Shown here: piece by piece, positions 1 to 47,077 of the stretch
Layout: every line of letters begins with the position of its first letter
How positions within the stretch are numbered: the stretch's first letter is position 1
Source: a virus
Lineage: Duplodnaviria > Heunggongvirae > Uroviricota > Caudoviricetes
DNA: 64,000 bases
Reading direction: 5' to 3' (one strand)
Virus record (IMG/VR): IMGVR_UViG_2925908680_000001
Program-made: the position numbers and the translations under genes
The notes under the pieces: model-generated
What the model was told of the DNA's origin: nothing
What the model saw: only the letters and a program-made list of their open reading frames with translations
Database searches by the model: none

Positions 1-96
1 GTTATGCATCCCCTGTTACCGAATTGCAGCCAGGGCGCGGTGCGCCGAAAAGCATACGGAGGTGGAAGCCCTCGCCGGAGACGTACCCGGCACAGT

Positions 97-173
97 GGTG
101 GTGTAGCTCAGTAGGATAGAGCAGCAGCCTTCTAAGCTGTCGGTCGGTGGTTCGAATCCACCCACCATCGCCA
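97..173 (+). tRNA. tRNA-Arg (anticodon TCT)
   Basis: Cloverleaf by eye: 7-bp acceptor (one GU), anticodon loop cttctaa, T-loop ttcgaat, encoded CCA; resembles E. coli argU. Confidence 0.85.
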
Positions 174-178
174 CTTTA

Positions 179-265
179 GGGGAGTTAGTCCGTAGGGGTA
201 GCGGGGTAGACTGTAAATCTACTGTCATTGCGACTCGGGTGGTTCGACTCCATCACTCCCCACCA
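179..265 (+). tRNA. tRNA-Tyr (anticodon GTA), class II with long variable arm
   Basis: Perfect 7-bp acceptor ggggagt/actcccc, perfect anticodon stem gtaga/tctac with loop ctgtaaa, long variable arm, T-loop ttcgact, CCA; D-arm less regular. Confidence 0.7.
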
Positions 266-269
266 AATT

Positions 270-345
270 GCCGGTTTAGCTCAGTTGGTAGAGCAGTCGC
301 TTTGTAAGCGAATGGTCAGCGGTTCGATCCCGTTAACCGGCACCA
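270..345 (+). tRNA. tRNA-Thr (anticodon TGT)
   Basis: Acceptor gccggtt/aaccggc, D-arm gctcagttggtagagc, anticodon loop tttgtaa, T-loop ttcgatc, CCA. Confidence 0.85.
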
Positions 346-353
346 ACACAACA

Positions 354-427
354 GGTAAGAGCATTTGTAGAGTTCGACTCTCTACCGTGGGCTTTTTCCC
401 GCGATGCGAGCCATAAATGCTCTTACC
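354..427. repeat. Inverted-repeat element 1 (13-bp arms ggtaagagcattt / aaatgctcttacc) enclosing a T-arm-like hairpin
   Basis: Arms at 354-366 and 415-427; inner hairpin gtagagttcgactctctac; followed by conserved motif gttgtgatgaagtgc. Confidence 0.6.
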
Positions 428-574
428 GTTGTGATGAAGTGCAGCTCTTTGAAGCAACCAGAAGATAAGCATCTGGCTTCACAACATAAACCGCAGGAAC
501 GACCAATAAACGGTAGTCCGTATGGAGAACACCCCGTTGAGGAAGAGGCCTGGCCGGAACCGTAACCGGCACTA

Positions 575-664
575 CAATGTTGAGAACACTGGCGTAACGG
601 GGTCATATCCCAATCTACGAATAAATGTTGCGTTGCAGCGTGACAACCAGTGTTCTCAACATTG
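575..664. repeat. Inverted-repeat element 2 (perfect 18-bp arms, 54-bp spacer)
   Basis: caatgttgagaacactgg at 575-592 and exact reverse complement at 647-664; followed by attgtggtgaatgcgc. Confidence 0.7.
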
Positions 665-799
665 TGGTGAATGCGCAGGCTGATGCGCGAAAGACATTGC
701 AGCTATTGCGGAAAAGAGCTGTTCGGCGGGGCAATTAAACGCCCGTGAGAGTCTGAAATAACCGCAAGCCGGAGATCAGCACCGGTCGCCACAATAACG

Positions 800-886
800 G
801 GAGAGTAGGGAGCATGGTGCTCAAGCGGTCTTGAAAACCGTCCCATTGCGCAAGCGATGATGGTTCGATTCCATTACTCTCCGCCA
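800..886 (+). tRNA. tRNA-Ser (anticodon TGA), class II, atypical A at position 8
   Basis: Acceptor ggagagt/actctcc, anticodon stem gcggt/accgt with loop cttgaaa, long variable arm, T-loop ttcgatt, CCA; D-arm irregular. Confidence 0.65.
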
Positions 887-893
887 GTGCAAC

Positions 894-1011
894 GTTAAGA
901 GTATTTGGCTAATTAAGCGAATGCCGGAAGCAGAACCGGATCACCAAATGCGTACAGGCGTCATCGCCGCCCAGCCAGCCAAGTGCTCTTACCATTGCGG
1001 TGAATGCGGCT
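894..1011. repeat. Inverted-repeat element 3 (imperfect arms) plus conserved right-end motif
   Basis: gttaagagtatttgg at 894-908 vs ccaagtgctcttacc at 979-993; followed by attgcggtgaatgcggc, the same motif family as elements 1 and 2. Confidence 0.5.
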
Positions 1012-1369
1012 AAGCGCACGCGGAACAGTTAAAACAATCCTCCTTAGTGGTTAAGTCAAACATCCCGGCGTTAATTGTTAACTGGTTAACGTCACCTGGA
1101 GGCACCAGGCACCGCAATCTAATAAAGTTTCAAGCAATGGAGTTTTTGTTGTCAGACTTCAGATATAGATGGTTGTGGAAGGAGAGCCTGTGCATAGTGC
1201 AGTTATTTCTTCCGCTATTTGTCTGCTTTGTCATGCTTCCTGAGCTGAAATACGCAATTTCAGACACTTTAAGCACTATCGTTACTTTTGTGTTTTATCT
1301 TTACTTTGATTACTTATTGAGCACTAAAATCAATGAATTATCCGAGGAAATGCAAGGTGGCTGTAAGTG

Positions 1370-1498
1370 ATGAATTTTTGGGCGTTTGCCGATAAGAACC
1401 CTGGTTGGACATTTTTATTTCTGCTGGTGGTTGCATATGGGGTCGAGCAAGCGGCAAAAGCCTTACGCGGTTCTGGCAAAAAGCGTAAGCGGAATTAA
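1370..1498 (+). CDS. Small hydrophobic peptide (42 aa), hypothetical
   Basis: Hand-translated ORF MNFWAFADKNPGWTFLFLLVVAYGVEQAAKALRGSGKKRKRN: one predicted TM segment and a basic tail; below the ORF-track size cutoff. Confidence 0.3.
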   Translation: MNFWAFADKNPGWTFLFLLVVAYGVEQAAKALRGSGKKRKRN

Positions 1499-1507
1499 CA
1501 GTAATCT

Positions 1508-1583
1508 GGCCCTTTAGCTCAGTGGTTAGAGCAGGCGACTCATAATCGCACGGTCACCGGTTCAAATCCGGTAGGGGCCACCA
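1508..1583 (+). tRNA. tRNA with CAT anticodon, most like tRNA-Ile2 (ileX type)
   Basis: Near-identical to E. coli ileX as recalled (ggcccnttagctcagtggttagagcaggcgactcataatcgc...), CCA encoded; Met cannot be excluded. Confidence 0.85.
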
Positions 1584-2037
1584 TATTTGGTTGTAACACG
1601 GCGTATGGCACATGCGTCGTTAGCGGTCTGGTGTAGCTGTTAGGTACCTTACTAACACTGCATGGGCACATCAGGTAGCCGGAATGTGCAAGTCACCGCT
1701 GGAGGGATAGCGGACTCAGGGACTCACCATCCTGGCGATTCGGTGTGACAGCCGGAATAGCACGGCGCACAACAGGAAAAGGCGTTTAATTAACGCGAGC
1801 GCCGTTTCCGTTGTGGTAATTGCGGCTATGCGCTCGTGACGAAGCCATTTTCATTCACTACGTTCTGATAAGTGACGTCGCCAGGAGTGGCTAACCTGGC
1901 AGGTGGAGGCACCACCGCCACAACTCCTTTCAATTCATCATATAGCCGCTCAGGCTGTACCCCTTAATTAATACGAAGTTACGACATCACTACCGGCACT
2001 TCCGGGGGATAGTCGCGCGTGTAAAAAAGGAGACGTT

Positions 2038-2613
2038 ATGTTAATGGCGAACGATAACGCATATGCAGAAGAAGATCTCATTTTGAGTGACTTCATAGGG
2101 AAGCGGGAACGCTGGACCAAAAAGCGAGAGGAACTTTACGCCTCATTAGTTCGCAAAGGCGTCAATATCGAAACCGCACAGAGCGGTGATATGACAGTGG
2201 TAAGCGTGGGATTGCACGGTGTAAGCGTGTCAGCAATCAATCATGAGCCATACGTTGCGTTATCCGAGTCAATGGTAAGGTTAGTTAAGTTCCTGAAATA
2301 CACAGAAGCGAATAATGTAATCATTGGCAAAAAGAATATCCCTTTTTCCTCGGCTTTTTACTGGATGATGAAAGGGCTTGATGCCCGGCGGACATCATGG
2401 CCCAAAGGGAGCTATATATCGATGTTCCGTGGCAGTATTGGCAGCAAAGAAAAGCTCTTCGAATTCTTGCCGGAAGAGGCATTCGATATTGTGGAAGGGT
2501 GCGATGTGATGGTGATGCCTCGCCTGGTAATGATGAATGGGGATTTACAGGCGCAGACAGACTGGTTTGCAACTGGTGTGGATATAATCGCGACTGACTG
2601 GGAGGCTTTCTGA
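2038..2613 (+). CDS. Hypothetical protein with DUF2829-like C-terminal domain
   Basis: ORF track; C-terminal pattern FSSAFYWMMKGLDARRTSWPKG ... DLQAQTDWFATGVDIIATDWEAF fits the DUF2829 family signature as recalled; RBS ggagacg before ATG. Confidence 0.55.
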   Translation: MLMANDNAYAEEDLILSDFIGKRERWTKKREELYASLVRKGVNIETAQSGDMTVVSVGLHGVSVSAINHEPYVALSESMVRLVKFLKYTEANNVIIGKKNIPFSSAFYWMMKGLDARRTSWPKGSYISMFRGSIGSKEKLFEFLPEEAFDIVEGCDVMVMPRLVMMNGDLQAQTDWFATGVDIIATDWEAF

Positions 2614-3005
2614 TGTACGGGACTACCAAATTAAGCACTCAACAGGCCACCAATATGGAGTGGTCTATCGCTAACTGTAAGATCGTGTCATGCAATGCCA
2701 CGCGTACTGATGTGGGCCATAAAAGTACTATAACAGGCTATCTAGTAATGACCACCAGGGGGATGAGGGTTAGATTTCGCTGGAAAGCAGAGCAAGTAAC
2801 GCCATTCAGAGAGCCATCAATGCCGCTGCAGGTTGAGCAGGATTATCTATGTTTACCAGAAATAGATGGAGGAATGCTGGTGGAGTCTGATGGTAGTAAG
2901 GCTGATTTTGAAGCCAATTTGAAGCTGGCACAGGCCGTAATCAATAGTTATCGCGGAAAGTGGATCGCAAAAGTGAAACATGTTGTTCGTTTGTCTCGCT
3001 GGTAG
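2613..3005 (+). CDS. Hypothetical protein
   Basis: ORF track; start overlaps upstream stop (ATGA coupling). Confidence 0.5.
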   Translation: MYGTTKLSTQQATNMEWSIANCKIVSCNATRTDVGHKSTITGYLVMTTRGMRVRFRWKAEQVTPFREPSMPLQVEQDYLCLPEIDGGMLVESDGSKADFEANLKLAQAVINSYRGKWIAKVKHVVRLSRW

Positions 3006-3023
3006 CGTTAGGTGTTTAATATT

Positions 3024-3040
3024 AATTTTCTAATATAATC
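3024..3040 (+). promoter_or_regulatory. Operator-like motif aattttctaatataatc (C1-operator-like family)
   Basis: Member of a recurring TTTCTAAYA motif; lies about 75 bp upstream of ORF 3114. Confidence 0.4.
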
Positions 3041-3113
3041 ATCTTTTTACCAGTCTATACAGTTTTAACATTCTCATTATCATCCCCTCGGTCATTTCCT
3101 GCCCGGGGGATTA

Positions 3114-3506
3114 ATGGAACAAATCAGCAGCGCAGAAATTGCGGATATCATGATCAGGGCTGACTGCTATCTGACAGTCACTGAAATTACCACTCTCGCC
3201 AAAGAAAAATACCCTCATCTCCATGTTTCACGAGTAAGTGTAACTAACATCATTCGTCATTTTGTTCGTTCAAGCAGGGCAATCTGTGAGCTGGATGATC
3301 GTGTGTATCCACGAAAATACTGGCTACATGGTCTGAACGGATATCAGTTCAAGGTGCGCGGGCGCACGCCTGAATACGGTAGCTTACTGGTTAAAAACTG
3401 TAGCAGGAAATCAGTCGAACAGGCGCGAAAAGAGCAACGAGAGCTGGTGGACATGGCGAATAAGCTGTGGAATGCCGCCGTTAAAAAGCGTGGTGTTGCT
3501 TTATGA
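3114..3506 (+). CDS. Hypothetical protein; positional analog of P1 late-promoter activator Lpa (unverified)
   Basis: ORF track; immediately upstream of pacA as lpa is in P1; operator-like motif upstream. Confidence 0.5.
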   Translation: MEQISSAEIADIMIRADCYLTVTEITTLAKEKYPHLHVSRVSVTNIIRHFVRSSRAICELDDRVYPRKYWLHGLNGYQFKVRGRTPEYGSLLVKNCSRKSVEQARKEQRELVDMANKLWNAAVKKRGVAL

Positions 3507-4867
3507 GTCTGGTTAATTGGGAGGAGCACCGCGCCCGCTTTATAGCGTTGCGTGAAGAAAAAGGGATCACTGTAAAGGAATACTGTGAGGAGCATGGCCT
3601 TAGCTTCAATACAGCCAGAAAGCATCTCAATATGAAAAAAAATGAGGTGCGGTCGCAGGTAAAGACAACAAAAAAAAGCACCAAATCACCTGAAAAAAAA
3701 CGGGCGGGAAGAGCAACAAAAAAGCTGGAAGAGGGTGCAGAAAAAACAAAATTTACAGAAATTGACAATTCTCAGGGCGCAGGTTCTTTCCGAAGTATGC
3801 CGAGAAAGAAAACTTCGGATCATGAAAATAATGCAAATAATAACAATGAGATAAAAGAATCTGTCAGGAGATCATTGCGCGAAAAAATGGCGAAAATGAT
3901 CCCCGAAGAAGATAAAAGCGCCCCAAAAATTGAGGGATCTTCTGCAATGATCCCTGACGGTGCTGTGCAGCGTGCCACATTGCCCACTACGAATGTGGCT
4001 CGCGATATGATGAAGAACGGCGCAGAAGAACACCTGCGGTTAGCAATTCAAATGGCGCAAGAGCGCGCACTTCAGTATCAAAGCATTGTTGATCAGGAGG
4101 CCGAACGTCTACAGGCGGAAATAGACGCCTTGGGCGATAAAGAGCCAGAAGGAATGCACCCTGGGCAGCGCCTTCTCGGTCTAATCAGTGACGCGGCCTA
4201 CTACATGAATGATTTTATCAGTAGGTTGGCAGCTATATATCAGTCCGAACAAAAGCTGCGACAGGGGGATGAAAAGCTTCGTCAGAGCGCTCGCCAGCAA
4301 GCATTCAAAGAGGCTGAGGCCAGAGAAAAACTCGAATTAGCACGCCTACAGGCCGAACAGCGTGGCAAAGAGATTGAATATCGCATTGGCGCTGACGCAC
4401 GCGCAGCCAGAGTTATCGCCGCCGCTATACGTATGCGTGAGCGCGAGGAACTGGATGATATCGGTGTTGCTGAATACATCGAGCGCCAGGGGGTCAGCGT
4501 CCCGGCTATCCTCGCGGCGCGCGCGGCGAAAGCTATCACTCTTCTCGAACCACCTGTTTCTGACGTCAATGATGTTGATGATGAACAGCTGGACAAAGAG
4601 GCAAGGGAGTTTGCAACGCTTCAGGCTAACCATCCGCAATGGCTGGCAGAGCGCCGGGCGGATGTGGCAACCATTGTTGAAGAATTGGGGTGCGGAGATT
4701 ACGATCGCAATGGCGAGCGTAAAGCTGGAGAATTCGAGGCCAACGACGAAGAGCTGGATATTGACCCTTCGGCAACGGCTGAAATTTACGGTGATTATGA
4801 TGTATCTGATGCAGGGTATGACGCCGGAGATGATGATATCGCGATAGAACCGCCGGAGGATGATTAA
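3503..4867 (+). CDS. pacA: Terminase small subunit, PacA-like
   Basis: ORF track; overlaps start of the large terminase; basic N-terminus and acidic C-terminal tail; synteny with P1 pacA-pacB. Confidence 0.55.
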   Translation: MSLVNWEEHRARFIALREEKGITVKEYCEEHGLSFNTARKHLNMKKNEVRSQVKTTKKSTKSPEKKRAGRATKKLEEGAEKTKFTEIDNSQGAGSFRSMPRKKTSDHENNANNNNEIKESVRRSLREKMAKMIPEEDKSAPKIEGSSAMIPDGAVQRATLPTTNVARDMMKNGAEEHLRLAIQMAQERALQYQSIVDQEAERLQAEIDALGDKEPEGMHPGQRLLGLISDAAYYMNDFISRLAAIYQSEQKLRQGDEKLRQSARQQAFKEAEAREKLELARLQAEQRGKEIEYRIGADARAARVIAAAIRMREREELDDIGVAEYIERQGVSVPAILAARAAKAITLLEPPVSDVNDVDDEQLDKEAREFATLQANHPQWLAERRADVATIVEELGCGDYDRNGERKAGEFEANDEELDIDPSATAEIYGDYDVSDAGYDAGDDDIAIEPPEDD

Positions 4868-6375
4868 TGGCTGGCGGGCGCAAGATTAAATGCGTCACCA
4901 GCGATCCACGCTGGCGCGATATGGTAATCAAATACCGCTACAACTTTACCCAGGCTGTTGTCGATATTTTTGGGATGTTCCCCTCCCACCAGCAGCAGCA
5001 GATCATTCAGTCAGTGCAGGAAACGGGGAGTAGGACGACCGTCACGTCCGGACACGGAACGGGGAAGTCGTCCCTTACCGCGATGTTGCTGTTGATTTTT
5101 ATGATCCTGTTCCCCGATGCCCGTGTCATCATTGTTGCTAACAAGATAGGCCAGGTAAAAACAGGCGTATTCAAATACGTTAAACAGTATTGGGCGAATG
5201 CAGTTAAGCGTCATGGGTGGTTGCAGACCTATTTTGTCCTCTCTGACACCATGTTTTATGAGCGCTCCCGTAAGGGGATTTGGGAAGTTCTCTGCAAAGG
5301 TTATCGACTCGGCAACGAAGAAGCGCTGGCGGGGGAACACGCGGCACATTTGCTTCTAATTCTGGATGAAGCATCTGGTATATCTGATAAGGCGATCGGC
5401 GTAATGACCGGTGCTCTTACTGAAGAAGATAACCGGATGTTGATGCTATCCCAGCCAACAAGGCCAAGTGGTTATTTCTACGATTCGCACCATTCTCAAG
5501 CAAAAACCCCAGACAACCCGAAAGGGATCTGGACAGCAATTGTTCTTAACTCGGAAGAATCACCGTTCGTCACACCACAATTCATCAAGCAGAAGCTTCT
5601 GGAATATGGTGGGCGCGATTCTATTGAGTATATGGTCAAGGTGCTTGGTCAGTTCCCACGAGAAATTAACGGCTATTTGCTTGGTCGTGATGAATGCGAT
5701 CGCGCTGCTCGCCGCAAGGTGTTGTTGGAGAAAAACTGGGGATGGGTGGCAACGGCTGACGTTGGTAATGGGCGAGATAAGTCGGTCCTCAACATCTGCA
5801 AGGTATCTGGTCACAGGGATAAGCGGCGCGTTGTTAACTTTAAGGTAATGGAGATGCCTGGCACTATGGACCCATTGGCCTTTGCTGACTTTATATATAA
5901 CGAATGTACGCCGGAAAAATACCCGAATATAACAATCGCGGTTGATGCCGATGGTTTTGGTTCTGATACGTGTGCGCAGTTGGTGCGTCGTGGTGCGAAC
6001 CCGGTACGTATTCGGTGGGGAAAACCCATGTTTGCGAACAAAGACAGGGAGCGATTTGTTAATCAGCGTGCCTACGCAAATATTATGGCGCGTGATGCCA
6101 TAAAGTCAGGGCGTATGCGGATAGACAGTGACCCAAAAACGGCAGAGCAAGCGTCAAAAATCCCCTTTTTACTGAATGAGGAAGGGAAAATGGCGATGAT
6201 GCGCAAAGAGCACATGCGGCAAAAGCTAAACATCAAATCGCCTGACCGATGGGATACCTACTGCTTCACTATGCTGGTGGACTATGTGCCTGCTAATGAA
6301 GATATTGGTGCCGAAATGGCAACTTTCCGAGATCAGGTTCTGGCGGATATCGAAATGCCAGATCTGGATATATAA
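4867..6375 (+). CDS. pacB: Terminase large subunit, PacB-like
   Basis: Walker A SGHGTGKSS and Walker B LLLILDEASG in the translation; 502 aa. Confidence 0.85.
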   Translation: MAGGRKIKCVTSDPRWRDMVIKYRYNFTQAVVDIFGMFPSHQQQQIIQSVQETGSRTTVTSGHGTGKSSLTAMLLLIFMILFPDARVIIVANKIGQVKTGVFKYVKQYWANAVKRHGWLQTYFVLSDTMFYERSRKGIWEVLCKGYRLGNEEALAGEHAAHLLLILDEASGISDKAIGVMTGALTEEDNRMLMLSQPTRPSGYFYDSHHSQAKTPDNPKGIWTAIVLNSEESPFVTPQFIKQKLLEYGGRDSIEYMVKVLGQFPREINGYLLGRDECDRAARRKVLLEKNWGWVATADVGNGRDKSVLNICKVSGHRDKRRVVNFKVMEMPGTMDPLAFADFIYNECTPEKYPNITIAVDADGFGSDTCAQLVRRGANPVRIRWGKPMFANKDRERFVNQRAYANIMARDAIKSGRMRIDSDPKTAEQASKIPFLLNEEGKMAMMRKEHMRQKLNIKSPDRWDTYCFTMLVDYVPANEDIGAEMATFRDQVLADIEMPDLDI

Positions 6376-6376
6376 A

Positions 6377-6393
6377 GCCCCGCTATGCGGGGC
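6377..6393. terminator. Hairpin between convergent pacB and ORF 6403-7440
   Basis: gccccgc-tat-gcggggc stem-loop; weak U-tract. Confidence 0.4.
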
Positions 6394-6402
6394 CGGTTGT
6401 GA

Positions 6403-7440
6403 TTACCAGAGCTTCGCGGCGTACTGCGTTTGGGGGAATGTGTATCCGTAACGTTCTTCGATTGCTTTGCCGTATTTTTTACGAGCTTCATTCAGTTTAA
6501 TGCCGGTCAGGTCGTCTCCAGAGGCCATCATTACGTCTAACAATTCCAGATCCATTTTATCTAGCCTTGCCATTGCTTCACGTGATGTACGTATCTTACG
6601 CTCAATGATATGGCGAATAGCCGGATCGGCATCCTCCAGCATCTTAGCGGATTTCTGCTTAAGGCTTTCATTGCGAATATCGATGTTCCTTAAGATGTAC
6701 GACTTCGCAACGTAGCTTGGCTGGTGTTTTTCTAGGTCACGAACACGATATAAGTTAAAATCGCCGAGAAGGCTGCAAGGTACCGATTCGACGCCAGAAT
6801 AAATTGTAATGCTCCGGCGTTCACCAACATTATTGACAACGGGGATCGTTGTCTTCGGTAGTCTTGCGAAAACCAATGCGCCATGTGCGCCAACTCTAAA
6901 GCGAGAAAGGGCATTGCTGCCTTCGATGTTTGTTGTCAGCACAACATCTGTATATGCCTCTTTACGCGCCCGGTAGATCTCGCCTTCAGGCTCAGCTTCA
7001 AAGAAGCGCTGTTCTTCTTCAAGAGCACCTACAATTTGAGAAAAAACCCTATTTTTCAGGCTTTTCTTTATGATTTTGTCGTATTTTTTGAGCAATTGTT
7101 CACGTGTAAATGTACGTGTTGTTGTAGCGCTTTGCACAACAACATGCGTGCTTTGATTGGTGTCCTCAATGATGAATGGGATCGGAGAATATACAGACTC
7201 AACAATGTTCGACGCTTTGCCGTCGGCATCGCGGCACATGTCAACGAAGGCTTTCCATTCAGCAAGACATTTTTCAGCTTCTTCTAATATGTTTTGGTCA
7301 TGCGTTAATGCAACATGGCGGAATTCCTCGCCAGCATAACTGGTATCATGGAAAACAGAGTTTGCGACCACCAGCTCTTTCCACCGTTCAGCGGTTTGCA
7401 GGAACCGTTTGTACTCTTTCTCGATCGACTTCTTACTCAT
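6403..7440 (-). CDS. Hypothetical 345-aa protein occupying the position of P1 c1/coi (candidate immunity repressor or accessory defence gene)
   Basis: ORF track; no motif recognised by eye; convergent with pacB, divergent from dre; operator-like motif 17-35 bp upstream of its start. Confidence 0.6.
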   Translation of the reverse strand: MSKKSIEKEYKRFLQTAERWKELVVANSVFHDTSYAGEEFRHVALTHDQNILEEAEKCLAEWKAFVDMCRDADGKASNIVESVYSPIPFIIEDTNQSTHVVVQSATTTRTFTREQLLKKYDKIIKKSLKNRVFSQIVGALEEEQRFFEAEPEGEIYRARKEAYTDVVLTTNIEGSNALSRFRVGAHGALVFARLPKTTIPVVNNVGERRSITIYSGVESVPCSLLGDFNLYRVRDLEKHQPSYVAKSYILRNIDIRNESLKQKSAKMLEDADPAIRHIIERKIRTSREAMARLDKMDLELLDVMMASGDDLTGIKLNEARKKYGKAIEERYGYTFPQTQYAAKLW

Positions 7441-7456
7441 TATTCCTACTCGATTT

Positions 7457-7475
7457 AGTTTTCTAACATAAAATT
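7457..7475 (+). promoter_or_regulatory. Operator-like motif agttttctaacataaaatt
   Basis: Recurring TTTCTAACA motif; immediately upstream of reverse-strand ORF 6403-7440. Confidence 0.45.
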
Positions 7476-7650
7476 ACTATGACAAATTTATGTCGAATAA
7501 CAGAGTGAGTAAAGGATCGAACTGTGATTTTTTGTCATCAATTTTAGAAAACCAACTGTATAAACCACACTTCGCAAATTAAAGACCATGAAGGCAACGT
7601 GTTACTGGTCAAAATCAATCTATGATGGATTAAAAAAAATCGCCATTTTG

Positions 7651-7682
7651 TAACTTTAAATAATTGGCATTATTTAAAGTTA
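7651..7682. other. rox site-specific recombination site (Dre target)
   Basis: taactttaaataat-tggc-attatttaaagtta: 14-bp perfect inverted arms around a 4-bp spacer; equals the reverse complement of rox as I recall it; 150 bp upstream of the recombinase gene. Confidence 0.9.
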
Positions 7683-7834
7683 GGCTATAATCATGTGTAG
7701 ATGAACAGTGTTGACATCACTGAAAATACGTGCCTCGAATCAAAGGTTTGTATTTTGAAAATTAACTTATAGCTACCCTGTCATTTTTATATTTTTCGCG
7801 TAGCGACATCTGTATATAGAGGTGAAATAGTTTC

Positions 7835-8863
7835 ATGAGTGAATTAATTATCTCTGGCAGTTCCGGTGGTTTTCTGCGCAACATTGGCAAAGAGTACCAG
7901 GAAGCCGCAGAAAACTTTATTCGGTTCATGAATGACCAGGGGGCTTATGCGCCGAATACACTGCGCGACCTCCGGTTAGTGTTTCATTCCTGGGCGCGCT
8001 GGTGTCACGCTCGCCAGCTTGCCTGGTTTCCGATCTCACCAGAAATGGCCCGCGAGTATTTTCTTCAGCTGCATGATGCCGATCTGGCTTCGACCACCAT
8101 TGATAAGCACTACGCCATGCTGAACATGCTGCTTTCGCATTGTGGCCTTCCGCCACTTTCGGATGATAAAAGTGTTTCTCTGGCTATGCGGCGCATCCGG
8201 CGCGAAGCGGCAACTGAAAAAGGCGAACGAACAGGCCAGGCTATTCCTTTGCGGTGGGATGATCTGAAACTGATCGACGTCCTGTTGTCCAGGTCAGAAC
8301 GGCTGGTGGACCTGCGCAACCGGGCTTTTCTCTTTGTTGCATACAATACGCTGATGCGTATGTCGGAAATCTCGCGTATTCGCATAAGAGATCTGGACCA
8401 AACAGGTGACACTGTCACGTTGCATATTTCACACACGAAGACAATAACGACCGCAGCCGGGCTTGATAAGGTGCTTTCCCGTCGCACTACTGCTGTGCTG
8501 AATGACTGGCTGGAGGCTTCCGGGCTTCGTGAACATCCTGACGCGGTGCTGTTCCCGCCGGTACACCGTAGCAATAAGGCCAGGATTACGGCAACGCCCC
8601 TTACTGCGCCTGCAATGGAGAAAATATTCAGCGACGCCTGGGTGTTGCTGAATAAAGGAGATGCTACGCCAAACAAAGGAAGATACCGGACGTGGACCGG
8701 GCATAGTGCACGCGTCGGGGCCGCTATCGATATGGCTGAAAAGCAGGTATCTATGGTGGAGATTATGCAGGAAGGAACCTGGAAGAAACCGGAAACACTT
8801 ATGCGGTATCTGCGCCGTGGCGGCGTGTCTGTGGGGGCTAATAGCCGCCTGATGGATTTGTGA
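7835..8863 (+). CDS. dre: Tyrosine site-specific recombinase, Cre family (Dre-like)
   Basis: 342 aa; Cre-like layout including C-terminal WTGHSARVGAA and MRYLRRG segments; adjacent rox site. Confidence 0.92.
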   Translation: MSELIISGSSGGFLRNIGKEYQEAAENFIRFMNDQGAYAPNTLRDLRLVFHSWARWCHARQLAWFPISPEMAREYFLQLHDADLASTTIDKHYAMLNMLLSHCGLPPLSDDKSVSLAMRRIRREAATEKGERTGQAIPLRWDDLKLIDVLLSRSERLVDLRNRAFLFVAYNTLMRMSEISRIRIRDLDQTGDTVTLHISHTKTITTAAGLDKVLSRRTTAVLNDWLEASGLREHPDAVLFPPVHRSNKARITATPLTAPAMEKIFSDAWVLLNKGDATPNKGRYRTWTGHSARVGAAIDMAEKQVSMVEIMQEGTWKKPETLMRYLRRGGVSVGANSRLMDL

Positions 8864-8867
8864 ATTA

Positions 8868-8883
8868 AATTTCTAACACATCT
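8868..8883 (+). promoter_or_regulatory. Operator-like motif aaatttctaacacatc
   Basis: Recurring motif downstream of dre stop, upstream of ORF 8937. Confidence 0.4.
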
Positions 8884-8936
8884 TTTTAGATTAACATCTT
8901 TGCTGTAAAGTACCCTCGCCTATTTAGGAGGGTGCT

Positions 8937-9281: not shown

Positions 9282-9754
9282 AAACTTATTACCCATCTCT
9301 GAATTGTTACCCGTCTTCCTATCCAGAATTGTCCGGGAAGCTGTTAGCTCTATTAGCTAAAGCACCTACGGAATGGTTTAAGCCAGTCGTTATTAATCCG
9401 CACTTCCAGGATTACGGATCTGTTCGTACTCGTAACGAACTCAAAAACCTACTGGCGCATGGATTCATTCGACACCGTGCCGGGAAAGGCTATCAGTTAG
9501 CGATTGCGCCAGAAGAGGCCGTGCGGCTATTCGCATATCGTGACAGCCAGACAAAAGCTCGGGTAATAGCTCAAATACTTCATAACGGCAGCACCTATGC
9601 CCGCCAGTTTGGCGGCGACACGTCGCAGTTCTTGCGGGCGGTGCGATCGCTGGAGGAGCAAGGAGTTATTGAAAGTTCCTGTCTTCCTGTTCCTACCGTT
9701 CCACATATCAAACGTCGGGTTTACACCTTCACGCAGAGAGCTAAAAAACTATGA
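9278..9754 (+). CDS. Hypothetical protein
   Basis: ORF track; GTG start overlapping upstream stop. Confidence 0.45.
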   Translation: MKTYYPSLNCYPSSYPELSGKLLALLAKAPTEWFKPVVINPHFQDYGSVRTRNELKNLLAHGFIRHRAGKGYQLAIAPEEAVRLFAYRDSQTKARVIAQILHNGSTYARQFGGDTSQFLRAVRSLEEQGVIESSCLPVPTVPHIKRRVYTFTQRAKKL

Positions 9755-10259: not shown

Positions 10260-10910
10260 ATGAATAACATGGCAACGAAAGAGCTTTTTAAGGTCCTTCC
10301 CAAATACAAAGCTCACAAAAACGTTAGTGCATCGAAAATCAAAAATGTTGTTATTTTCGGAGTAACTGATGACCCACTTTGGGGCTGCATCGAACTCGTT
10401 GAACCCAAAGGGGCAACAGTTTGTGTTGACGCAATTTTTTTACAAAAACACCGACCAAAAACTGGCGGGTATCTGATCGTTTATGAAAACGGTTATCTGT
10501 TCTATGCCCCGGAGAAACCATTTGAGCAATGCTATGGCCTGGTTAACGACGCCTCCGAAAATGGGGTATCGCTCAGCATTGAAGGTCACAATGGGGTGAC
10601 ATTCATTACAGCCAGGGACGTAACTATTGCTGTCGGTGGCATCATTACCACACAAGAAGAAATCGACCTTGAAGCAGCCGACTTTTCTGACGCGCTAATG
10701 TGGCTGAAAGAAGGAAAAAATGTAGCTCGACGCGAGTGGAAAGGCGAAAAGCAATTCTGCTGGTTAGTTCTCGCTGGGAGCGTCAATTTACATGACATTC
10801 AGGTTCCTTATGGTGACCATTTTGTGTTGAAAGATGCACAAAATATAAACAGCGTTTGGTTGCCGTCTGTTGATGATTTACTGGCTTGTGACTGGTTTGT
10901 AGTGGAGTGA
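10260..10910 (+). CDS. Hypothetical protein with C-terminal DUF2829-like domain
   Basis: C-terminal FSDALMWLKEGKNVARREWKG ... WLPSVDDLLACDWFVVE fits the DUF2829 signature as recalled; about 120-aa N-terminal extension. Confidence 0.55.
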   Translation: MNNMATKELFKVLPKYKAHKNVSASKIKNVVIFGVTDDPLWGCIELVEPKGATVCVDAIFLQKHRPKTGGYLIVYENGYLFYAPEKPFEQCYGLVNDASENGVSLSIEGHNGVTFITARDVTIAVGGIITTQEEIDLEAADFSDALMWLKEGKNVARREWKGEKQFCWLVLAGSVNLHDIQVPYGDHFVLKDAQNINSVWLPSVDDLLACDWFVVE

Positions 10911-13305: not shown

Positions 13306-13325
13306 TACTGTTCATTTATACAGTA
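13306..13325. promoter_or_regulatory. LexA (SOS) box
   Basis: tactgttcatttatacagta matches the CTG-N10-CAG consensus; 20-40 bp upstream of humD. Confidence 0.75.
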
Positions 13326-13460
13326 TACATTAAAGGGACACCTTTGGTGCAAACGCGTTACGTACATCAACCACCGCTGATGATTTTGTGCTCTTTGCTA
13401 CTATTCATCACCAACGGATCAGCGTAACCTCGTTGCCAATCAGTTAATAAGGAATTAGCT

Positions 13461-14042
13461 ATGCCTAATCGCATTCCTCTCGATCCTGTATTGCCCAAGA
13501 ATTTTGACTGCACTCCTAACGAGAAACGCTCTAAAGCTCAGCTGGACGCCTGGTGGGACCATCCCTATGGGGTTACAGAACATGACGGGAAAATTGTTGT
13601 TTATTGTCTGAATGGTGGCGCGTGGGACCGTCCATCCGTGCTTGGTTTGGCAAATAACTATGATGAAGCCTGTGAACTTGCCGAAAGACAGCAGGCTAGA
13701 TGGGTGAATACACGGTCTGAACCGACATTCATGTTTTCAAAAGAACCGCCATTTATACTGGCGAGGATGCCGCAGCGACCGGATCATCAACAAGAAATTG
13801 TTGCTGAATTTTCCTCAAGGGATGAGATGAATCTCTTCTCATTAAAGCAGGAAGAAAGGGATCGCGTCGAAGTGTCTCCAACTCTCGACCACAACCAGAT
13901 GAACCTGGCCCAACTCGCCTGGTACAGCAAAGAATTAGAGATGTCTATTGCCCGACTTGAAAACGAAAAAGCCGCTATCCAAGCCCAGCATGAAGTAGTT
14001 CTGAACCGGATTAGAGAAATGCAAAACGATAATAGAGGCTAA
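13461..14042 (+). CDS. Hypothetical protein with C-terminal coiled coil
   Basis: ORF track; RBS aggaat before ATG; divergent from humD. Confidence 0.5.
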   Translation: MPNRIPLDPVLPKNFDCTPNEKRSKAQLDAWWDHPYGVTEHDGKIVVYCLNGGAWDRPSVLGLANNYDEACELAERQQARWVNTRSEPTFMFSKEPPFILARMPQRPDHQQEIVAEFSSRDEMNLFSLKQEERDRVEVSPTLDHNQMNLAQLAWYSKELEMSIARLENEKAAIQAQHEVVLNRIREMQNDNRG

Positions 14043-14102
14043 ATCGAGGTAGAAAACACATTGTTTAAGGCCACTAATTGTGGCCTCAAAGGGGAGAGAT
14101 GC

Positions 14103-14654
14103 TTATTGGCTATGGCTAAAAATCAAATGAGACACTTCATGTGGTTGTAGCTCGTCAAGATCCGGGGCCACAAAACCTTTTCCGAAAAACTTCACAAGTA
14201 ATTCACCAGCCGAATCATTGTCACCTATTACACGAAAGTCATACGGCAGCATCGCAAGTTGACGGCGTAATCCTGCGGAGAAAGTCGAACCTAACAGCGC
14301 CCACGAATTGCCGCCCGCGTTGTGTACAGCTGCGCTCTTAAAAATAGACTCAGTTATCCATATTGGGCCATCTTTTAAAGGAAGATAGGTTCCCCAAAGT
14401 AACTGTCTGCCATGTGATCGCGTGAAATACCGGGCCATCTTCGGATTGCTATGCTGCTTAGGAGCACCTGGTCTATATGTCTGATACCCAGCCAACATCC
14501 CATCAAACCTGTATAGAGGGAATGTAACTACTCCTTCACTTTCATCGATCCACTGTCTATATGGGTGTATATCATGGCGGTAGTTACGAGTTAGCAAATG
14601 AGCTTCCAGCTTTCCAAATTTTGTCATATTCCGTTCTTCCTGCATACTGGGCAT
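14103..14654 (-). CDS. Hypothetical protein, possible Toprim-like fold
   Basis: Segments IWITESIFKSAAV and FRVIGDNDSAGEL resemble Toprim E and DxD motifs; weak. Confidence 0.4.
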   Translation of the reverse strand: MPSMQEERNMTKFGKLEAHLLTRNYRHDIHPYRQWIDESEGVVTFPLYRFDGMLAGYQTYRPGAPKQHSNPKMARYFTRSHGRQLLWGTYLPLKDGPIWITESIFKSAAVHNAGGNSWALLGSTFSAGLRRQLAMLPYDFRVIGDNDSAGELLVKFFGKGFVAPDLDELQPHEVSHLIFSHSQ

Positions 14655-14929
14655 GTGTTCTCTGTGAAATATGGGAAACTATTATCCAGCTCATCTACCC
14701 ACTGTTTATGGTCGAAGCAGAAAAATATCTCCCACGGCATTCCATATTCTTCCATCCATAGGCGGATCTGCATTTCTATTGGAATCGGCGGTATTGCAGA
14801 CACCATATCAACAGGATAACAGTTCAGACGACGTTCCAGTTTTTCTACTCTCTTCTGGAGATGAAATATCCGATCCAGATGCACACGCCGCTCCCGTGCC
14901 ATTTTAAAATAAAGCTCGCCGGTCATCAT
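14624..14929 (-). CDS. Small coiled-coil plus C-terminal Cys-motif protein (paralog A)
   Basis: C-terminus WEIFFCFDHKQWVDELDNSFPYFTENTCPVCRK; paralogous to the adjacent ORF. Confidence 0.5.
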   Translation of the reverse strand: MMTGELYFKMARERRVHLDRIFHLQKRVEKLERRLNCYPVDMVSAIPPIPIEMQIRLWMEEYGMPWEIFFCFDHKQWVDELDNSFPYFTENTCPVCRKNGI

Positions 14930-15213
14930 TAACTCCTACATTCAGGGCAAGAGTTCCCTTCCGCAAAATAGGGGAAACTGCTATCAAGCTCATCACACCA
15001 TCTGCGATGGTCGTAGCACCAAAACGCCTCCCACGGTGCACGGAAATACTTCATCCACCAGGACACTCGATCAGGTATATCTGCTGGTGGCAGCTCTTCT
15101 GGCAATAATTTGCCTGATAATTCCCTTTCCGCCCGCGCCAGCATTCCTTTTAGACTCGCATTCTCTTTTTCAAGAATATCTATGCGCGCCTGTAACTCAG
15201 CTTTCGTTGGCAT
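14929..15213 (-). CDS. Small coiled-coil plus C-terminal Cys-motif protein (paralog B)
   Basis: C-terminus WEAFWCYDHRRWCDELDSSFPYFAEGNSCPECRS; start chosen at MPTKAEL. Confidence 0.5.
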   Translation of the reverse strand: MPTKAELQARIDILEKENASLKGMLARAERELSGKLLPEELPPADIPDRVSWWMKYFRAPWEAFWCYDHRRWCDELDSSFPYFAEGNSCPECRS

Positions 15214-15877
15214 GGTCCGCCTCATGCTTTTCAGCCACCAGCGGCAATAAAGCCCTGGCCATCTTATGAACCAACAGAGCATCGATAATGCCAAGCGTAT
15301 GCCCCGGCTTAATGTTTAATGCCGCCTCAAGGTGACACCTTTCCAGGTCACTTTTCTCGGCTTGTTTATGATGATCTGGCGTAATAACGTCGCCCAAAAC
15401 ACGGCTAATTCTTTCTCGTAATTGCTGGGTGCCTGCACACTTGATCGCTGTATCGTGGAGACGGTTAACCAGTTCGCGATAAACATGCGGCTTAATGCGG
15501 ATACGTTCACCGGTGACGCCCTTTCCTGGCGCTGGCACCGAACTATCCGGAATATCCGGATAGTTGCCAGCCTCGTAAGCTACCCGCAGCCAGTGCATGA
15601 ATGTTTCAGTGGACACACAACCACAGTCCACATCGATTTTTCCGCGTTGCTGTTCCAGCCACTGCTCAAAATTCAATCTACACGTATTACTTTCATGTTG
15701 CTCTTTTTGTCTCAAGGCCAGCACCTGTTGGGCCAGTTCCAGAACGATACCGGGTGACGCTAACCTCTCAAATTCCAATAAATAGTTTGCGTCAGGATGA
15801 CAAGTAGCCTCGCCTGCAAAAAATACCAATTGCTGTAAGTATGCTGTCGTTAGAGTAGTCATTTCTTTTTGCGCCAT
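15197..15877 (-). CDS. Hypothetical early protein sharing a C-terminal module with ORF 24369-24989
   Basis: Shared segment YRELVNRLHDTAIKCAGTQQLRERIS vs YRELVDALRDVAIECHGTDQLRARLS. Confidence 0.5.
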   Translation of the reverse strand: MAQKEMTTLTTAYLQQLVFFAGEATCHPDANYLLEFERLASPGIVLELAQQVLALRQKEQHESNTCRLNFEQWLEQQRGKIDVDCGCVSTETFMHWLRVAYEAGNYPDIPDSSVPAPGKGVTGERIRIKPHVYRELVNRLHDTAIKCAGTQQLRERISRVLGDVITPDHHKQAEKSDLERCHLEAALNIKPGHTLGIIDALLVHKMARALLPLVAEKHEADHANES

Positions 15878-16233
15878 TTCTTTTCACATTCCTTAGTCCA
15901 TTTTTCAATGTTCATTTTGGCAATATCAGTCATTCCATCACCTAAGAAATACTTTTTCCGGTACGTCTTGCACTTAAACCACACTACAACAGCCACCAGC
16001 CAGAAAATAAAAGGCCATACGGCAATACCAACTCCAGCCGCGATAAAGCCCAATATCCATAAATGAAGCTCTCCAACTTCTGTTTCCGGCAATATTCTTA
16101 AAGAATTAAACAGCAGGCTGAACGAATGGTCGTATGCATTGGCAGTATAAGACATGCAATCCATATAATTAAAGTCATAGCCTGCGGCTGCCGCCCATAA
16201 TGGGCGGTCAAGAAAATGTTTTAGTGTCATCAT
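15859..16233 (-). CDS. Hypothetical membrane protein
   Basis: Hydrophobic stretch ILGFIAAGVGIAVWPFIFWLVAVVVWF; basic C-terminus. Confidence 0.45.
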   Translation of the reverse strand: MMTLKHFLDRPLWAAAAGYDFNYMDCMSYTANAYDHSFSLLFNSLRILPETEVGELHLWILGFIAAGVGIAVWPFIFWLVAVVVWFKCKTYRKKYFLGDGMTDIAKMNIEKWTKECEKKWRKKK

Positions 16234-16239
16234 ATTAAT

Positions 16240-16533
16240 TTAAGGTTCAGACCAGTTATCTTCAATAGCAATGCTTAATCTTTGTAGCCATTCTGCTAAT
16301 TTCAGCATTGCTTCTCTTTCGCTTAAACCACACGGAAAATCATCAAGCGATATTGTTGGCTTGAAGTTTCCCAAATTATCCATTTCAACGGTCAGATTTT
16401 GCTCCAGAACGGTATTTCTTACGCGGCTATTGTGCCGAAGCAAATATACTGAACGTGATTTATTGGTTTTGTGGTCGAACGTATATTCGGTAAGTATCAT
16501 CTGACTTCCGCCATGATTATTACCGCGCCACAT
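16240..16533 (-). CDS. Hypothetical protein
   Basis: ORF track. Confidence 0.4.
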   Translation of the reverse strand: MWRGNNHGGSQMILTEYTFDHKTNKSRSVYLLRHNSRVRNTVLEQNLTVEMDNLGNFKPTISLDDFPCGLSEREAMLKLAEWLQRLSIAIEDNWSEP

Positions 16534-16556
16534 AATTACTCCGTGTTAATTGAAAT

Positions 16557-16919
16557 TTAGCTATTAATCTTCACTTTTATCGCGAACACCTTTACCGGTT
16601 TATCACCGAAGTGTGGATGTGTGATTGTTTTTATTTCATATCCGTTATACGGGACGTCTATTCTGCGACTGGAATCGTCGCGCTTCGGATATCCCTTTGT
16701 GATAATCAGGCGGTCATATTCCCGGAACATGATTCGCTTATTCCAGTAGTCATTACACAAGCGATACTCTTCCGTTTTCTCTCCAGACTTCATCTGGTCG
16801 AAATATTCACCGTTAACTGCCAGTTGAAGGTTAGCCACGGTTAACCTCCTGCGGTGGTTCCGGTAGCGGCATCCAGTGAGTTGCCTGCTCAATACCATTA
16901 CCCGGTTTAATCGTTGCAT
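16557..16919 (-). CDS. Hypothetical protein (true start probably internal)
   Basis: ORF track; overlaps the upstream gene. Confidence 0.4.
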   Translation of the reverse strand: MQRLNRVMVLSRQLTGCRYRNHRRRLTVANLQLAVNGEYFDQMKSGEKTEEYRLCNDYWNKRIMFREYDRLIITKGYPKRDDSSRRIDVPYNGYEIKTITHPHFGDKPVKVFAIKVKINS

Positions 16920-18075: not shown

Positions 18076-18341
18076 GATGCCTCTCCTTTACCCGCTGCTT
18101 TCGCCTGCTCTTTAGCAAGTCGCTCCGCTTCTCTGAAATCCCAATCCACTCGATGTGCTATATCAATTGCAGAGCGCACGGTTCGCTCAATTAGCGTATC
18201 CAGATTGTCAATTGTCATTGCCATATCTGGATTGCGAGATAAAATCTCCGCCCTCTGAATCTGCCAGTTGTTGCAGGTTTCAAGTAATGAGTTAGCCATA
18301 TCACTCTCCTTTGATGCGAATGCCAGCGGTGCGGGAATCAT
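18072..18341 (-). CDS. Hypothetical protein
   Basis: ORF track. Confidence 0.4.
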   Translation of the reverse strand: MIPAPLAFASKESDMANSLLETCNNWQIQRAEILSRNPDMAMTIDNLDTLIERTVRSAIDIAHRVDWDFREAERLAKEQAKAAGKGEAS

Positions 18342-19053
18342 TCCATCGCTTTACTTCTTCACGAATTACGTCAATGCATTCTTTCGAATCCATTAGGTAA
18401 TCTTCATCAAAAAGACGTTCCTGTTCGTTTTCTATCGCAACAATGATTGCTTCAACTAACTTTTGTGCCTGAGAATCACTTTCTAACTCTGCTATGCGCT
18501 TCTCTGCGGCTTCCAGCTTCTCGCGCATATCGTCAACGTACTCGACCAGAGATCCGCCAGCAGGAATTTCGCACTCCTCGACCAGTTGGAAGTAGATATC
18601 AGCTGCGGCCCGTGTGTTGCTATGCCTTGCGTCGCCCATCTCACCTTCACGAAGAGCATCGCGTTCGGCGGTAAGATTGGCTATTTTGCTGTCTTTGCCT
18701 TCCAGCTCAACGCGCAGCCTCCCAACCGTTAGCGCAATTTCCTCGTTCTCCTGGTCGCGGCGTTTGATGTATTGCTGTTTTCTTTCCAGCTCATCCAGCA
18801 GCGCCAAGACGGTAGCCGGATTGGCTGCGGCGATGAATTCAGCATTGGCCTGCTGTTCCATTTGGAAATCTTCATCGAAACCGCTTTCTGGATGCGCTCC
18901 TTCAATTCTGCAAATTGGAAGATATCCAACAACCTCACGATGAATTAGCGCATCATCACCATCAAATCGGCCATTTCCATATTCGAGCGACCACACACCA
19001 CACGTTGCTTTCTCTGCCTTTTCACGCAGTGCCTGATAGTCAATCTTGTTCAC
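18301..19053 (-). CDS. Ea22-like coiled-coil protein
   Basis: N-terminus MNKIDYQALREKAEKAT... shared with neighbouring paralogs. Confidence 0.5.
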   Translation of the reverse strand: MNKIDYQALREKAEKATCGVWSLEYGNGRFDGDDALIHREVVGYLPICRIEGAHPESGFDEDFQMEQQANAEFIAAANPATVLALLDELERKQQYIKRRDQENEEIALTVGRLRVELEGKDSKIANLTAERDALREGEMGDARHSNTRAAADIYFQLVEECEIPAGGSLVEYVDDMREKLEAAEKRIAELESDSQAQKLVEAIIVAIENEQERLFDEDYLMDSKECIDVIREEVKRWNDSRTAGIRIKGE

Positions 19054-21570: not shown

Positions 21571-21610
21571 AATGCATACCGACTCTGTTTTGTTCCGAGC
21601 GGTAAAATAA

Positions 21611-21656
21611 TATGTTAGAAAATTAAAATCAACAATCTAACACGATTTTGAGCGCG
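21611..21656. promoter_or_regulatory. Pair of operator-like motifs (tatgttagaaaatt and aatctaacacg)
   Basis: Recurring TTTCTAACA motif in both orientations upstream of reverse-strand ORF 20575-21570. Confidence 0.4.
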
Positions 21657-25147: not shown

Positions 25148-25185
25148 GTCCTCCAAACAGTTATCAGGAATGATATTAATGTTTT

Positions 25186-25222
25186 GTGTTAGAAAATCAA
25201 TTTTGAATATCTAATCATTTTG
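25186..25222. promoter_or_regulatory. Operator-like motifs in the divergent promoter region between the early operon and ref
   Basis: tgtgttagaaaat (reverse orientation) and atatctaatcatt (forward). Confidence 0.4.
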
Positions 25223-25264: not shown

Positions 25265-25843
25265 ATGCAGAAACAGAGCTATTGGGAGAAACAGAGACAA
25301 AAAGCCATGCAAAAATTGGCTGACCCAGCCTGGCGAGAGGAACAAAGGGCAAAGCGCCTTCAACAAGCTCAACGCCAGCAGCAGCGAGCGAGAGAAAAAG
25401 CCGCATCGCCTGAATATCGGCAAAAGAAAATTGAAAAAGCAAAGCAATATGAACAGCGGAGAAAAGATAAAGCTGTATCCGCTCCGTCCAAAAAAACACG
25501 CACGTCACGCGGCCTGAAAGGCAGATCACTCACAGCCGATGAACGCCGGATACAGACCGCTATCGGTGCTCTCCCCTGCATTGCCTGCCATATTCACGGG
25601 CAACATAGCCCAGTGGTATCCCTGCACCATATCTTCGGGAGAACGGCAGAGAACGCACATAGATATGTCCTCCCTTTGTGTAAATGGCACCACCAGTACG
25701 CAGCGCCAGCCGAGGTCCGAGAACAATATCCCTGGCTGGTCCCTGTTCATGCTGACGGAAAAATAGGCGGAAAAGCAGATTTCATGCGGCACAATGCCGA
25801 TGAAATGACGTTGTATCAGATGGCGATTGAATTGATAAATTAG
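25265..25843 (+). CDS. ref: HNH-type endonuclease, Ref-like
   Basis: Basic low-complexity N-terminus then HNH-like core (CIACHIHG...HHIFGR...CKWHH). Confidence 0.6.
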   Translation: MQKQSYWEKQRQKAMQKLADPAWREEQRAKRLQQAQRQQQRAREKAASPEYRQKKIEKAKQYEQRRKDKAVSAPSKKTRTSRGLKGRSLTADERRIQTAIGALPCIACHIHGQHSPVVSLHHIFGRTAENAHRYVLPLCKWHHQYAAPAEVREQYPWLVPVHADGKIGGKADFMRHNADEMTLYQMAIELIN

Positions 25844-25857
25844 TTTTCTAACATTTT
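25842..25857 (+). promoter_or_regulatory. Operator-like motif agttttctaacatttt
   Basis: Recurring motif downstream of ref. Confidence 0.4.
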
Positions 25858-26174
25858 AAGTTGAATTGTAAATTTCTCCGATGTACATTCACTACCGATT
25901 GGCACACCGGTCAACTTTTTGAGACAAACTGTTTAGTTTTTCGTATTATTGCCGCCGCTATACCTATGGCGGTGCAATATAGGTGGCTGAAAAGCCCCCG
26001 TTGACTCACGGTGTTCCAGCCTTTATTGCGCCGCCACCAGACCGTGGAACAGTCGATGGCGGCTCCGAAAGCAAGGAGTCACCACACTATGAACAGCTAC
26101 TGTCTTTTCCCATCACTCGTTGTCCGCCACTCACGCGATAATCTGCATTCTTTACTCGCGCTGGGGGTGTCAAA

Positions 26175-26342: not shown

Positions 26343-26446
26343 AATACTGACTGTTGCGCCCTGGCATTATCGTGGGGTATATTTCTACGGCACCTTAGAA
26401 AAACGGGTGCCGGGATTGGAACCCCGGATAATGCAAAAGGCGACAC

Positions 26447-29215: not shown

Positions 29216-29326
29216 GTAAACAAAATGAAGTTTTATGTTACAAAAACAATCAACTACATCAACATGATTTAGGCCAAATTTCGGTCAAAAAATAAAATCC
29301 ACAAAAAGTGGTTGACACTATTTTGG

Positions 29327-35999: not shown

Positions 36000-36014
36000 A
36001 AAATGCACCCATTT

Positions 36015-36050
36015 GTGTTAGATAATTAACATGTATTTTCTAACACAAAT
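36015..36050. promoter_or_regulatory. Inverted pair of operator-like motifs upstream of rdgC
   Basis: ccatttgtgttaga ... tctaacacaaatgg: 14-bp perfect inverted repeat ending about 10 bp before the rdgC start. Confidence 0.5.
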
Positions 36051-36058
36051 GGTGAGAC

Positions 36059-45041: not shown

Positions 45042-45068
45042 GCTTCACAAAAGCTACATAATTATTTT

Positions 45069-45081
45069 GCGTTAGAAAAAT
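45069..45081 (-). promoter_or_regulatory. Operator-like motif (atttttctaacgc on the reverse strand)
   Basis: Recurring TTTCTAACA-like motif downstream of the spanins. Confidence 0.3.
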
Positions 45082-45289
45082 AATTTGAATTTTCGAACAT
45101 AAATAATAAAATAAATCATCAAAAATTTGATGTTGATCTTCCATGTTTTCAGGCTTATATTCACGCCGTCGTAGCAAATTCTGCGACCGGGTTTAGCAGC
45201 CTGAATGATTGTGCGGACAACCGCAGATTTCCGATATTGCGGTATTTTTGTGTCCGTAAACCGCGTTACGCCCGAATTATGGTGGGGCG

Positions 45290-45400: not shown

Positions 45401-45407
45401 CGTAACT

Positions 45408-46989: not shown

Positions 46990-47017
46990 AACTCTAATGA
47001 TTTGTGTTAGAAAACTA
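46990..47017 (-). promoter_or_regulatory. Operator-like motif (agttttctaacacaaatcatt on the reverse strand)
   Basis: Recurring motif immediately upstream of ORF 46585-46989. Confidence 0.45.
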
Positions 47018-47077
47018 AAATTAAATCACATAACAACATGCGTGTTAATATATTTTATTTTACTAAACCTATTGACT

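Follow-up and report, generated by a model that had tools for sequence, protein, structure and literature searches.

The c1 repressor gene of a D6-like phage-plasmid, its predicted dispersed operators and a Tus-like core in the modelled protein

The C1 protein of phage P1 is an established repressor, which has been described as a monomer that recognizes asymmetric 17-bp operators. These are dispersed as single and bivalent sites at lpa, c1, ref and the 3′ end of ref, and the immC region of P1 carries six annotated operators. In P1 and P7, c1 lies between pacB and a recombination site with its recombinase gene, and it is oriented towards pacB. Phage D6, reported to be heteroimmune to P1, contains a gene that has been annotated as c1 since 2004, with the descriptions ‘c1, phage repressor protein, similar to the C1 repressor of phage P1’ and ‘prophage repressor’. 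In D6-like Salmonella plasmids the gene is given as the C1 lytic repressor, and Lxc is missing from them (PMC6799933). The consensus of the P1 operators is ATTGCTCTAATAAATTT (PMC8546580).

The DNA analyzed here, called the window in what follows, is a stretch of 64,000 nucleotides from the IMG/VR virus record IMGVR_UViG_2925908680_000001, one among more than 100 D6-like phage-plasmids. It is highly probable that the 345-residue reading frame found between its pacB and rox-dre genes is c1 and that it encodes the element's master repressor of the prophage state (immunity C), with a dispersed operator and a predicted Tus-like core.

The c1 gene, its surroundings and its family

The gene that the original prediction had placed on the reverse strand between pacB and rox-dre was confirmed as an ATG-started open reading frame at 6403..7440 on the minus strand. 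It is flanked on one side by pacB (4867..6375, plus strand), towards which it is transcribed as in P1, and on the other side by rox (7651..7682), which is followed by dre (7835..8863, plus strand). The start codon is preceded by an AGGA Shine-Dalgarno sequence at 7447..7444, and the gene is followed by a G+C-rich hairpin terminator (6376..6394, minus strand), composed of an 8-pair stem with seven G-C pairs and a T-rich tail, which sits inside the 27-bp gap between c1 and pacB. The rox site, TAACTTTAAATAATGCCAATTATTTAAAGTTA, annotated under this name in AY753669, is 32 bp long with perfect 14-nt arms; it is the boundary of the immC block and lies outside the repressor circuit. A near-consensus sigma-70 promoter directed towards dre is located partly within it (7664-7691, plus strand; TTGGCA, a spacer of 16 bp and TATAAT, 11/12 positions matching).

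The immC block is flanked by two plus-strand genes (2038-2613 and 10260-10910) whose products contain a Tad2-like (anti-Thoeris) domain, PF11195, with E-values of 1.2e-9 and 4.2e-18, respectively, both above the curated cut-off. Their D6 counterparts, D6_6 (mapped) and probably D6_114, are annotated as hypothetical. Four tRNA genes (97-342 and 1508-1580) are found upstream of the lpa-pac block; in the same area of D6, a tRNA-Ser (anticodon UGA) is annotated.

The region is 98.6–99% identical to that of phage D6 (AY753669, MF356679), where c1 is likewise found between pacB and rox-dre, and its product does not differ from D6 C1 at any residue (100% identity; AAV84948.1 in AY753669; ASR76322.1, D6_1, in MF356679). 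The two c1 genes differ at five nucleotides, each a synonymous change at a third codon position. In the spacer between c1 and dre, 13 of 394 positions differ, none of them within 7441-7556 or rox, the operator, promoter and rox sequences being identical. The window is a mosaic relative of D6: the identity is 90–98%, some segments have been replaced, and there is a second c4 region. Two of its segments, 13334-14935 and 15572-20272, gave no blastn match to D6 positions 41200-91159 and, from this comparison, may be cargo that differs from that of D6 or may reflect a rearrangement. The same c1 locus is present on at least 110 D6-like plasmids from E. coli, Salmonella and Shigella, where GenBank submitters name the product ‘phage repressor protein’ and RefSeq mostly ‘hypothetical protein’.

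The homology to P1 C1 was found with several methods. BLASTP aligns the D6-type and P1 proteins over 240 residues with 21% identity (E=2e-8), and phrog_1678 is matched end to end by both of them (2.8e-170 for D6-type C1 and 2.6e-140 for P1 C1). A search with a D6-type profile retrieves P1-type C1 at 1e-82, with PF27008 (Phage_P7_repressor_C1) on every match. The NCBIfam model NF041318 (phage_rep_C1) matches residues 7-240 (E=8.9e-6) with a score of 25.4 bits, compared with 607.5 for P1 C1, and thus below its equivalog cut-off of 500. In a local copy of Pfam, which is older than PF27008, neither D6 C1 (E<=1) nor P1 C1 had a match. A tblastn search of phages with D6-type C1 at E<=1e-5 returned D6 only, since P1 is too distant for that search mode. 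The C1 family is small, with 122 clusters (50% identity) in a set of 1.84 billion representatives.

The D6-type and P1 proteins share a homologous core of about 245 residues. R41, P86, P88, R157, R159 and H186 are among the positions without variation in a ten-sequence alignment of D6-type proteins with P1 C1. D6-type C1 is longer than the P1/P7 protein (345 residues vs 283) and has a conserved helical C-terminal extension of 100 residues at the place where P1 C1 has a short basic tail. Two further relatives were traced through C1, here called L005 (C1 51% identical) and L006 (C1 44% identical; Logan SRR12267734, contig 54), and both keep the order lpa-pacA-pacB-c1-site-recombinase. L005 retains the exact D6 rox. 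L006 contains a rox variant, TAACTTTAGATAACTCCCATTATCTAAAGTTA, at about 9715-9746, adjoining a gene for a 342-residue Dre-like recombinase, and the two may represent a new heterospecific recombinase/site pair. The Tad2-like genes are also found in L005 and L006, one of those in L006 being fused to a dUTPase.

C1 of the window is a member of the P1/P7 C1 family, in which it belongs to a separate, heteroimmune subfamily. The original prediction had presented the gene as an orphan without a recognizable motif that stood in for c1, and had held that clear homology to P1 C1 would make it simply c1; the identity with D6 C1 and the homology described above establish that it is c1. Its option of a divergent immunity repressor agrees with this identity and homology and with the C1-type dispersed motif that sequence analysis predicts (see below). 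The other option was that the hotspot between pacB and the recombinase had taken up an unrelated gene with an accessory or anti-phage defence function, in favour of which the missing match in the local Pfam copy and the frequent RefSeq label may be cited. However, four independent sequence comparisons tie the protein to P1 C1, no family of the PADLOC-DB defence models matched C1 at E<=1, and the synteny is conserved in divergent relatives, down to 44% identity of C1. The probability of an accessory or defence gene is therefore close to nil, this reading being already refuted by the homology results at the level of sequence.

Predicted operators and the c1 promoter

The operator-like motif that had been noticed upstream of c1 is real and occurs more often than expected by chance. 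Its distance from the gene had to be revised: the 13-mer TTTCTAACATAAA is found at 7460-7472 on the plus strand, antisense to c1 and 20–32 bp 5′ of the ATG, instead of the 17–35 bp originally given. With up to two mismatches, it occurs ten times in the window, compared with 2.16 expected occurrences, and at least ten were found in none of 100 shuffles. A scan of the window with a position weight matrix (PWM) yielded 12 sites that score 18 bits or more and have the consensus ATTnAnTTTTCTAACAYAAA, and all seven exact TTCTAACA octamers of the window are inside these sites. Ten of the 12 cores are fully contained in the 9.6% of the window outside the greedy ORF call, and the remaining two are inside a single 133-residue ORF, which is probably spurious. 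Two of the loci (36008-36053 and 45062-45107) are bivalent, each made up of two inverted cores at a distance of exactly 25 bp. At both c1 and lpa, L005 and L006 retain the core TTTTCTAACA in intergenic DNA that has otherwise diverged. Sigma-70 matches over the operators are many but weak (8–9 of 12 positions) in this AT-rich DNA, and they were not counted as evidence.

The motif is very probably the operator of D6-type C1, as predicted from its sequence and distribution. It resembles the P1 consensus in its TCTAA core and general layout, and the arrangement as dispersed asymmetric sites, single and bivalent, at lpa, c1, ref and the 3′ end of ref is that of P1. The P1 consensus itself has no match in the window at up to three mismatches, nor does the P1 immC region contain the D6-type motif. 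The repressor and its predicted operator have thus diverged together, as one would expect of relatives that are heteroimmune. The geometry of the bivalent sites also differs, since in the D6-type pairs the 5′ ends face each other with the cores 25 bp apart, whereas the 3′ ends overlap in P1 Oc1ab. It is conceivable that the TTTTCTAACAYAAA motif, though real, is bound by another phage or host factor and that C1 itself recognizes a different sequence, given that the motif is AT-rich, overlaps the many weak sigma-70-like matches and owes its operator role to sequence-based prediction. This is highly unlikely, however, because the motif has the same TCTAA core and general layout as the P1 operator, is found at the positions of P1 operators and, as in P1, occurs as single asymmetric sites and inverted pairs.

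At c1, the predicted proximal operator (7452..7476, plus strand; 29 bits) contains the core TTTCTAACATAAA and is just downstream of the putative c1 promoter, antisense to the gene; L005 and L006 have the same core at the same place and in the same orientation. The promoter (7485..7513, minus strand) would consist of a -35 hexamer TTTACT at 7513..7508, a 17-bp spacer and a -10 hexamer TAAATT at 7490..7485, which together match the consensus at 8 of 12 positions. The hexamers and their spacing recur in L005, where the sequence of the spacer has diverged. On the other side, a weaker, distal operator-like site, GGTTTTCTAAAATTGA, is located at 7538..7555 on the minus strand, in the sense orientation of c1. 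It scores below the PWM threshold, and its aligned counterparts are TTTTTCTAACA (L005) and TTTTCTAACAC (L006). Together with the proximal site, at a distance of 71 nt, it makes up an 87% inverted pair. As both sites bracket the probable promoter, C1 would be expected to repress its own gene, a negative autoregulation that we infer from the sequence.

Several of the predicted sites are positional equivalents of P1 operators. The one at 3019..3043 (plus strand; PWM) is 71 bp upstream of lpa, which was confirmed in the window by PF25716, and corresponds to P1 Olpa, located 71–87 bp upstream of lpa; sites are also found upstream of lpa in L005 and L006. The site at 25179..25203 (minus strand) is equivalent to Oref; it is located 62 bp upstream of ref, between this gene and the divergent orf88. 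A third one, at 25837..25861 (plus strand), covers the stop codon of ref, as does P1 Omat, to which it corresponds in position, and is upstream of the first c4-icd-antirepressor region, the C4 RNA of which is at 26513-26600. The bivalent site at 45062..45107 precedes the second c4 region (c4-a1b1, 45155-45207; C4 RNA, 45275-45360) and is comparable to the C1-controlled operator reported upstream of c4 in P1. The other bivalent site (36008..36053), which has the same 25-bp geometry, is upstream of hrdC-dmt.

The PWM also placed single putative operators at the end of dre (8862..8886, plus strand), 51 bp upstream of the orf117-dut operon, and at 21605..21629 (minus strand), 35 bp upstream of a pdcB-like operon. 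Two more, both on the minus strand, are found 13 bp upstream of a simB-like gene (29228..29252) and 8 bp upstream of an orf52-like gene (46997..47021).

From this map, C1 would most likely bind the asymmetric operator of about 20 bp defined by the consensus, and its binding to the single and inverted-pair sites that precede operons for early functions and lysogeny control (lpa, ref, the two c4-icd-antirepressor regions, hrdC-dmt, the pdcB-like and simB-like genes and the dut operon) would keep lytic functions off.

P1 accessory functions and the c4 modules

The absence of coi from this slot, noted in the original prediction, was borne out. On the minus strand between c1 and dre, the largest ORFs have 33 and 24 codons and none is of the size of coi. 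The tblastn searches with P1 Coi, ImcA, ImcB and Lxc, for which P1 C1 served as positive control, gave nothing better than E=0.13 in the window, D6 positions 1-7467 and 41200-91159, L005 and L006. The window thus differs from P1, as coi, imcA, imcB and lxc were not found in it. Another difference concerns the LexA site that P1 has at P2coi, since no LexA box was found near c1 in the D6-type region. The sole good LexA-box-like sequence in the window, TACTGTATAAATGAACAGTA, is at 13306-13325 and adjoins homologues of hot and humD.

A second region resembling c4-a1b1, the C4 antisense RNA and icd/antirepressor is found at 45155-46579, where it replaces D6 orf53. Its icd part is 77% identical to that of the first region (26390-28141). 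Judged by sequence, the element has two immI modules, a situation likewise noted for pYU39_89 (PMC6799933). Because homologues of Coi, ImcA, ImcB and Lxc, an upstream coi gene and a LexA box near c1 are all absent, relief of repression probably runs through the c4-controlled icd-antirepressor modules, and only through them.

The predicted Tus-like fold of C1

In a comparison of AlphaFold models of D6-type and P1-type C1 with the structures in the PDB, the only significant match was E. coli Tus. The Tus structures (1ECR, 4XR0-2) match both models over almost the full chain; a common alignment of 27 sequences underlies the two models. For the P1-type model (98% identical to P1 C1; pLDDT 79.8), the match to Tus has an E-value of 2.1e-9 and TM-scores of 0.52/0.49 over 310 columns; the C1-Tus TM-scores are moderate, ranging from 0.33 to 0.52. 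At the sequence level, hhalign gave a probability of 52% (51.6%) with a shallow profile of 27 sequences and 14% (14.4%) with a deep profile of 117 sequences, the alignments being collinear in both cases. A phmmer comparison of C1 with Tus was not significant, D6-type C1 did not match the Pfam Tus family at E<=1, and a sequence search of the PDB with the family profile returned nothing below E=0.5, so that no solved structure of a C1 relative was detected by sequence. As the profile-profile match is weak, and weaker with 117 sequences, we describe the relationship between C1 and Tus as a similarity of predicted fold and do not claim sequence homology. A resemblance by eye between the D6 operator and the Ter core (TTCTAAC vs TTGTAAC; TATGTT vs TATGTT) was dropped, because a match in both orientations is expected by chance in AT-rich DNA.

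Tus, as Kamada et al. reportedly described in 1996, is a monomer that clamps the asymmetric Ter site with interdomain β-strands. A monomer on a long asymmetric site also corresponds to what has been reported for P1 C1, and in the C1 model the conserved arginines of the family are on β-strands E39-46 and E155-170. The core of C1 (residues ~1-245) is predicted to have the two-domain Tus fold, and for this reason one monomer may clamp one asymmetric site, probably via β-strands carrying R41, R157 and R159. The C-terminal 100 residues of D6-type C1 are modelled as an extra helical hairpin, not present in Tus, with a possible role in oligomerization or looping. The two proteins further differ in function, fork arrest by Tus as opposed to transcriptional repression by C1, and in the number of sites, C1 having many per 90-kb genome. 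We see about an even chance that the P1- and D6-type C1 repressors are a second family with the otherwise unique Tus fold and that they read their operators as Tus reads Ter, as monomers that would clamp the duplex via interdomain β-strands with invariant arginines.

The fold similarity also invites the reading that this C1 homologue is no longer an immunity repressor and is a Tus-like polar barrier to forks or helicases, or a plasmid-maintenance factor, immunity being provided by another protein. The 100-residue extension that P1 C1 lacks and the absence of the Coi and Lxc partners would fit it as well. The Tus fold is, however, no argument against repression, since the established repressor P1 C1 gives the same match. 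The predicted sites are promoter-proximal at lpa, c1, ref and c4, like P1 operators, and not at replication termini, and a non-systematic look at the window revealed no other candidate for a master repressor. A barrier or maintenance factor is therefore very unlikely, and a prophage repressor remains the preferred reading. As such, D6-type C1 would resemble the lambda CI-type repressors, which combine a helix-turn-helix (HTH) and an S24 peptidase domain, in being the master repressor of the prophage and, as inferred here for C1, in repressing its own gene. It differs from them in its predicted fold, with no HTH or peptidase domain detected, and in its asymmetric sites, and nothing points to RecA-dependent self-cleavage.

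Of the results described here, only the modelled Tus-like fold of the C1 family may be new; no paper linking C1 to Tus was found in the literature searched, the coverage of which was incomplete, so that novelty is not proven. The C1 family may be the first relative of Tus, and the predicted fold offers a structural explanation of asymmetric operator recognition by P1 C1. If true, it would account for the long-known recognition of operators by a monomeric protein without an HTH, would hint at an evolutionary connection of a phage-plasmid repressor with a taxonomically restricted enterobacterial terminator, and would lead one to ask whether C1, when bound to its operator, blocks helicases or replication forks in a polar manner. 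The RefSeq label ‘hypothetical’ for D6-type C1 could be corrected. The D6-type immunity circuit appears to be simpler than that of P1, with neither Coi nor Lxc detected, and the operator consensus together with the 12-site map provides a model of immunity, open to testing, for the D6-type elements that are common in E. coli and Salmonella.
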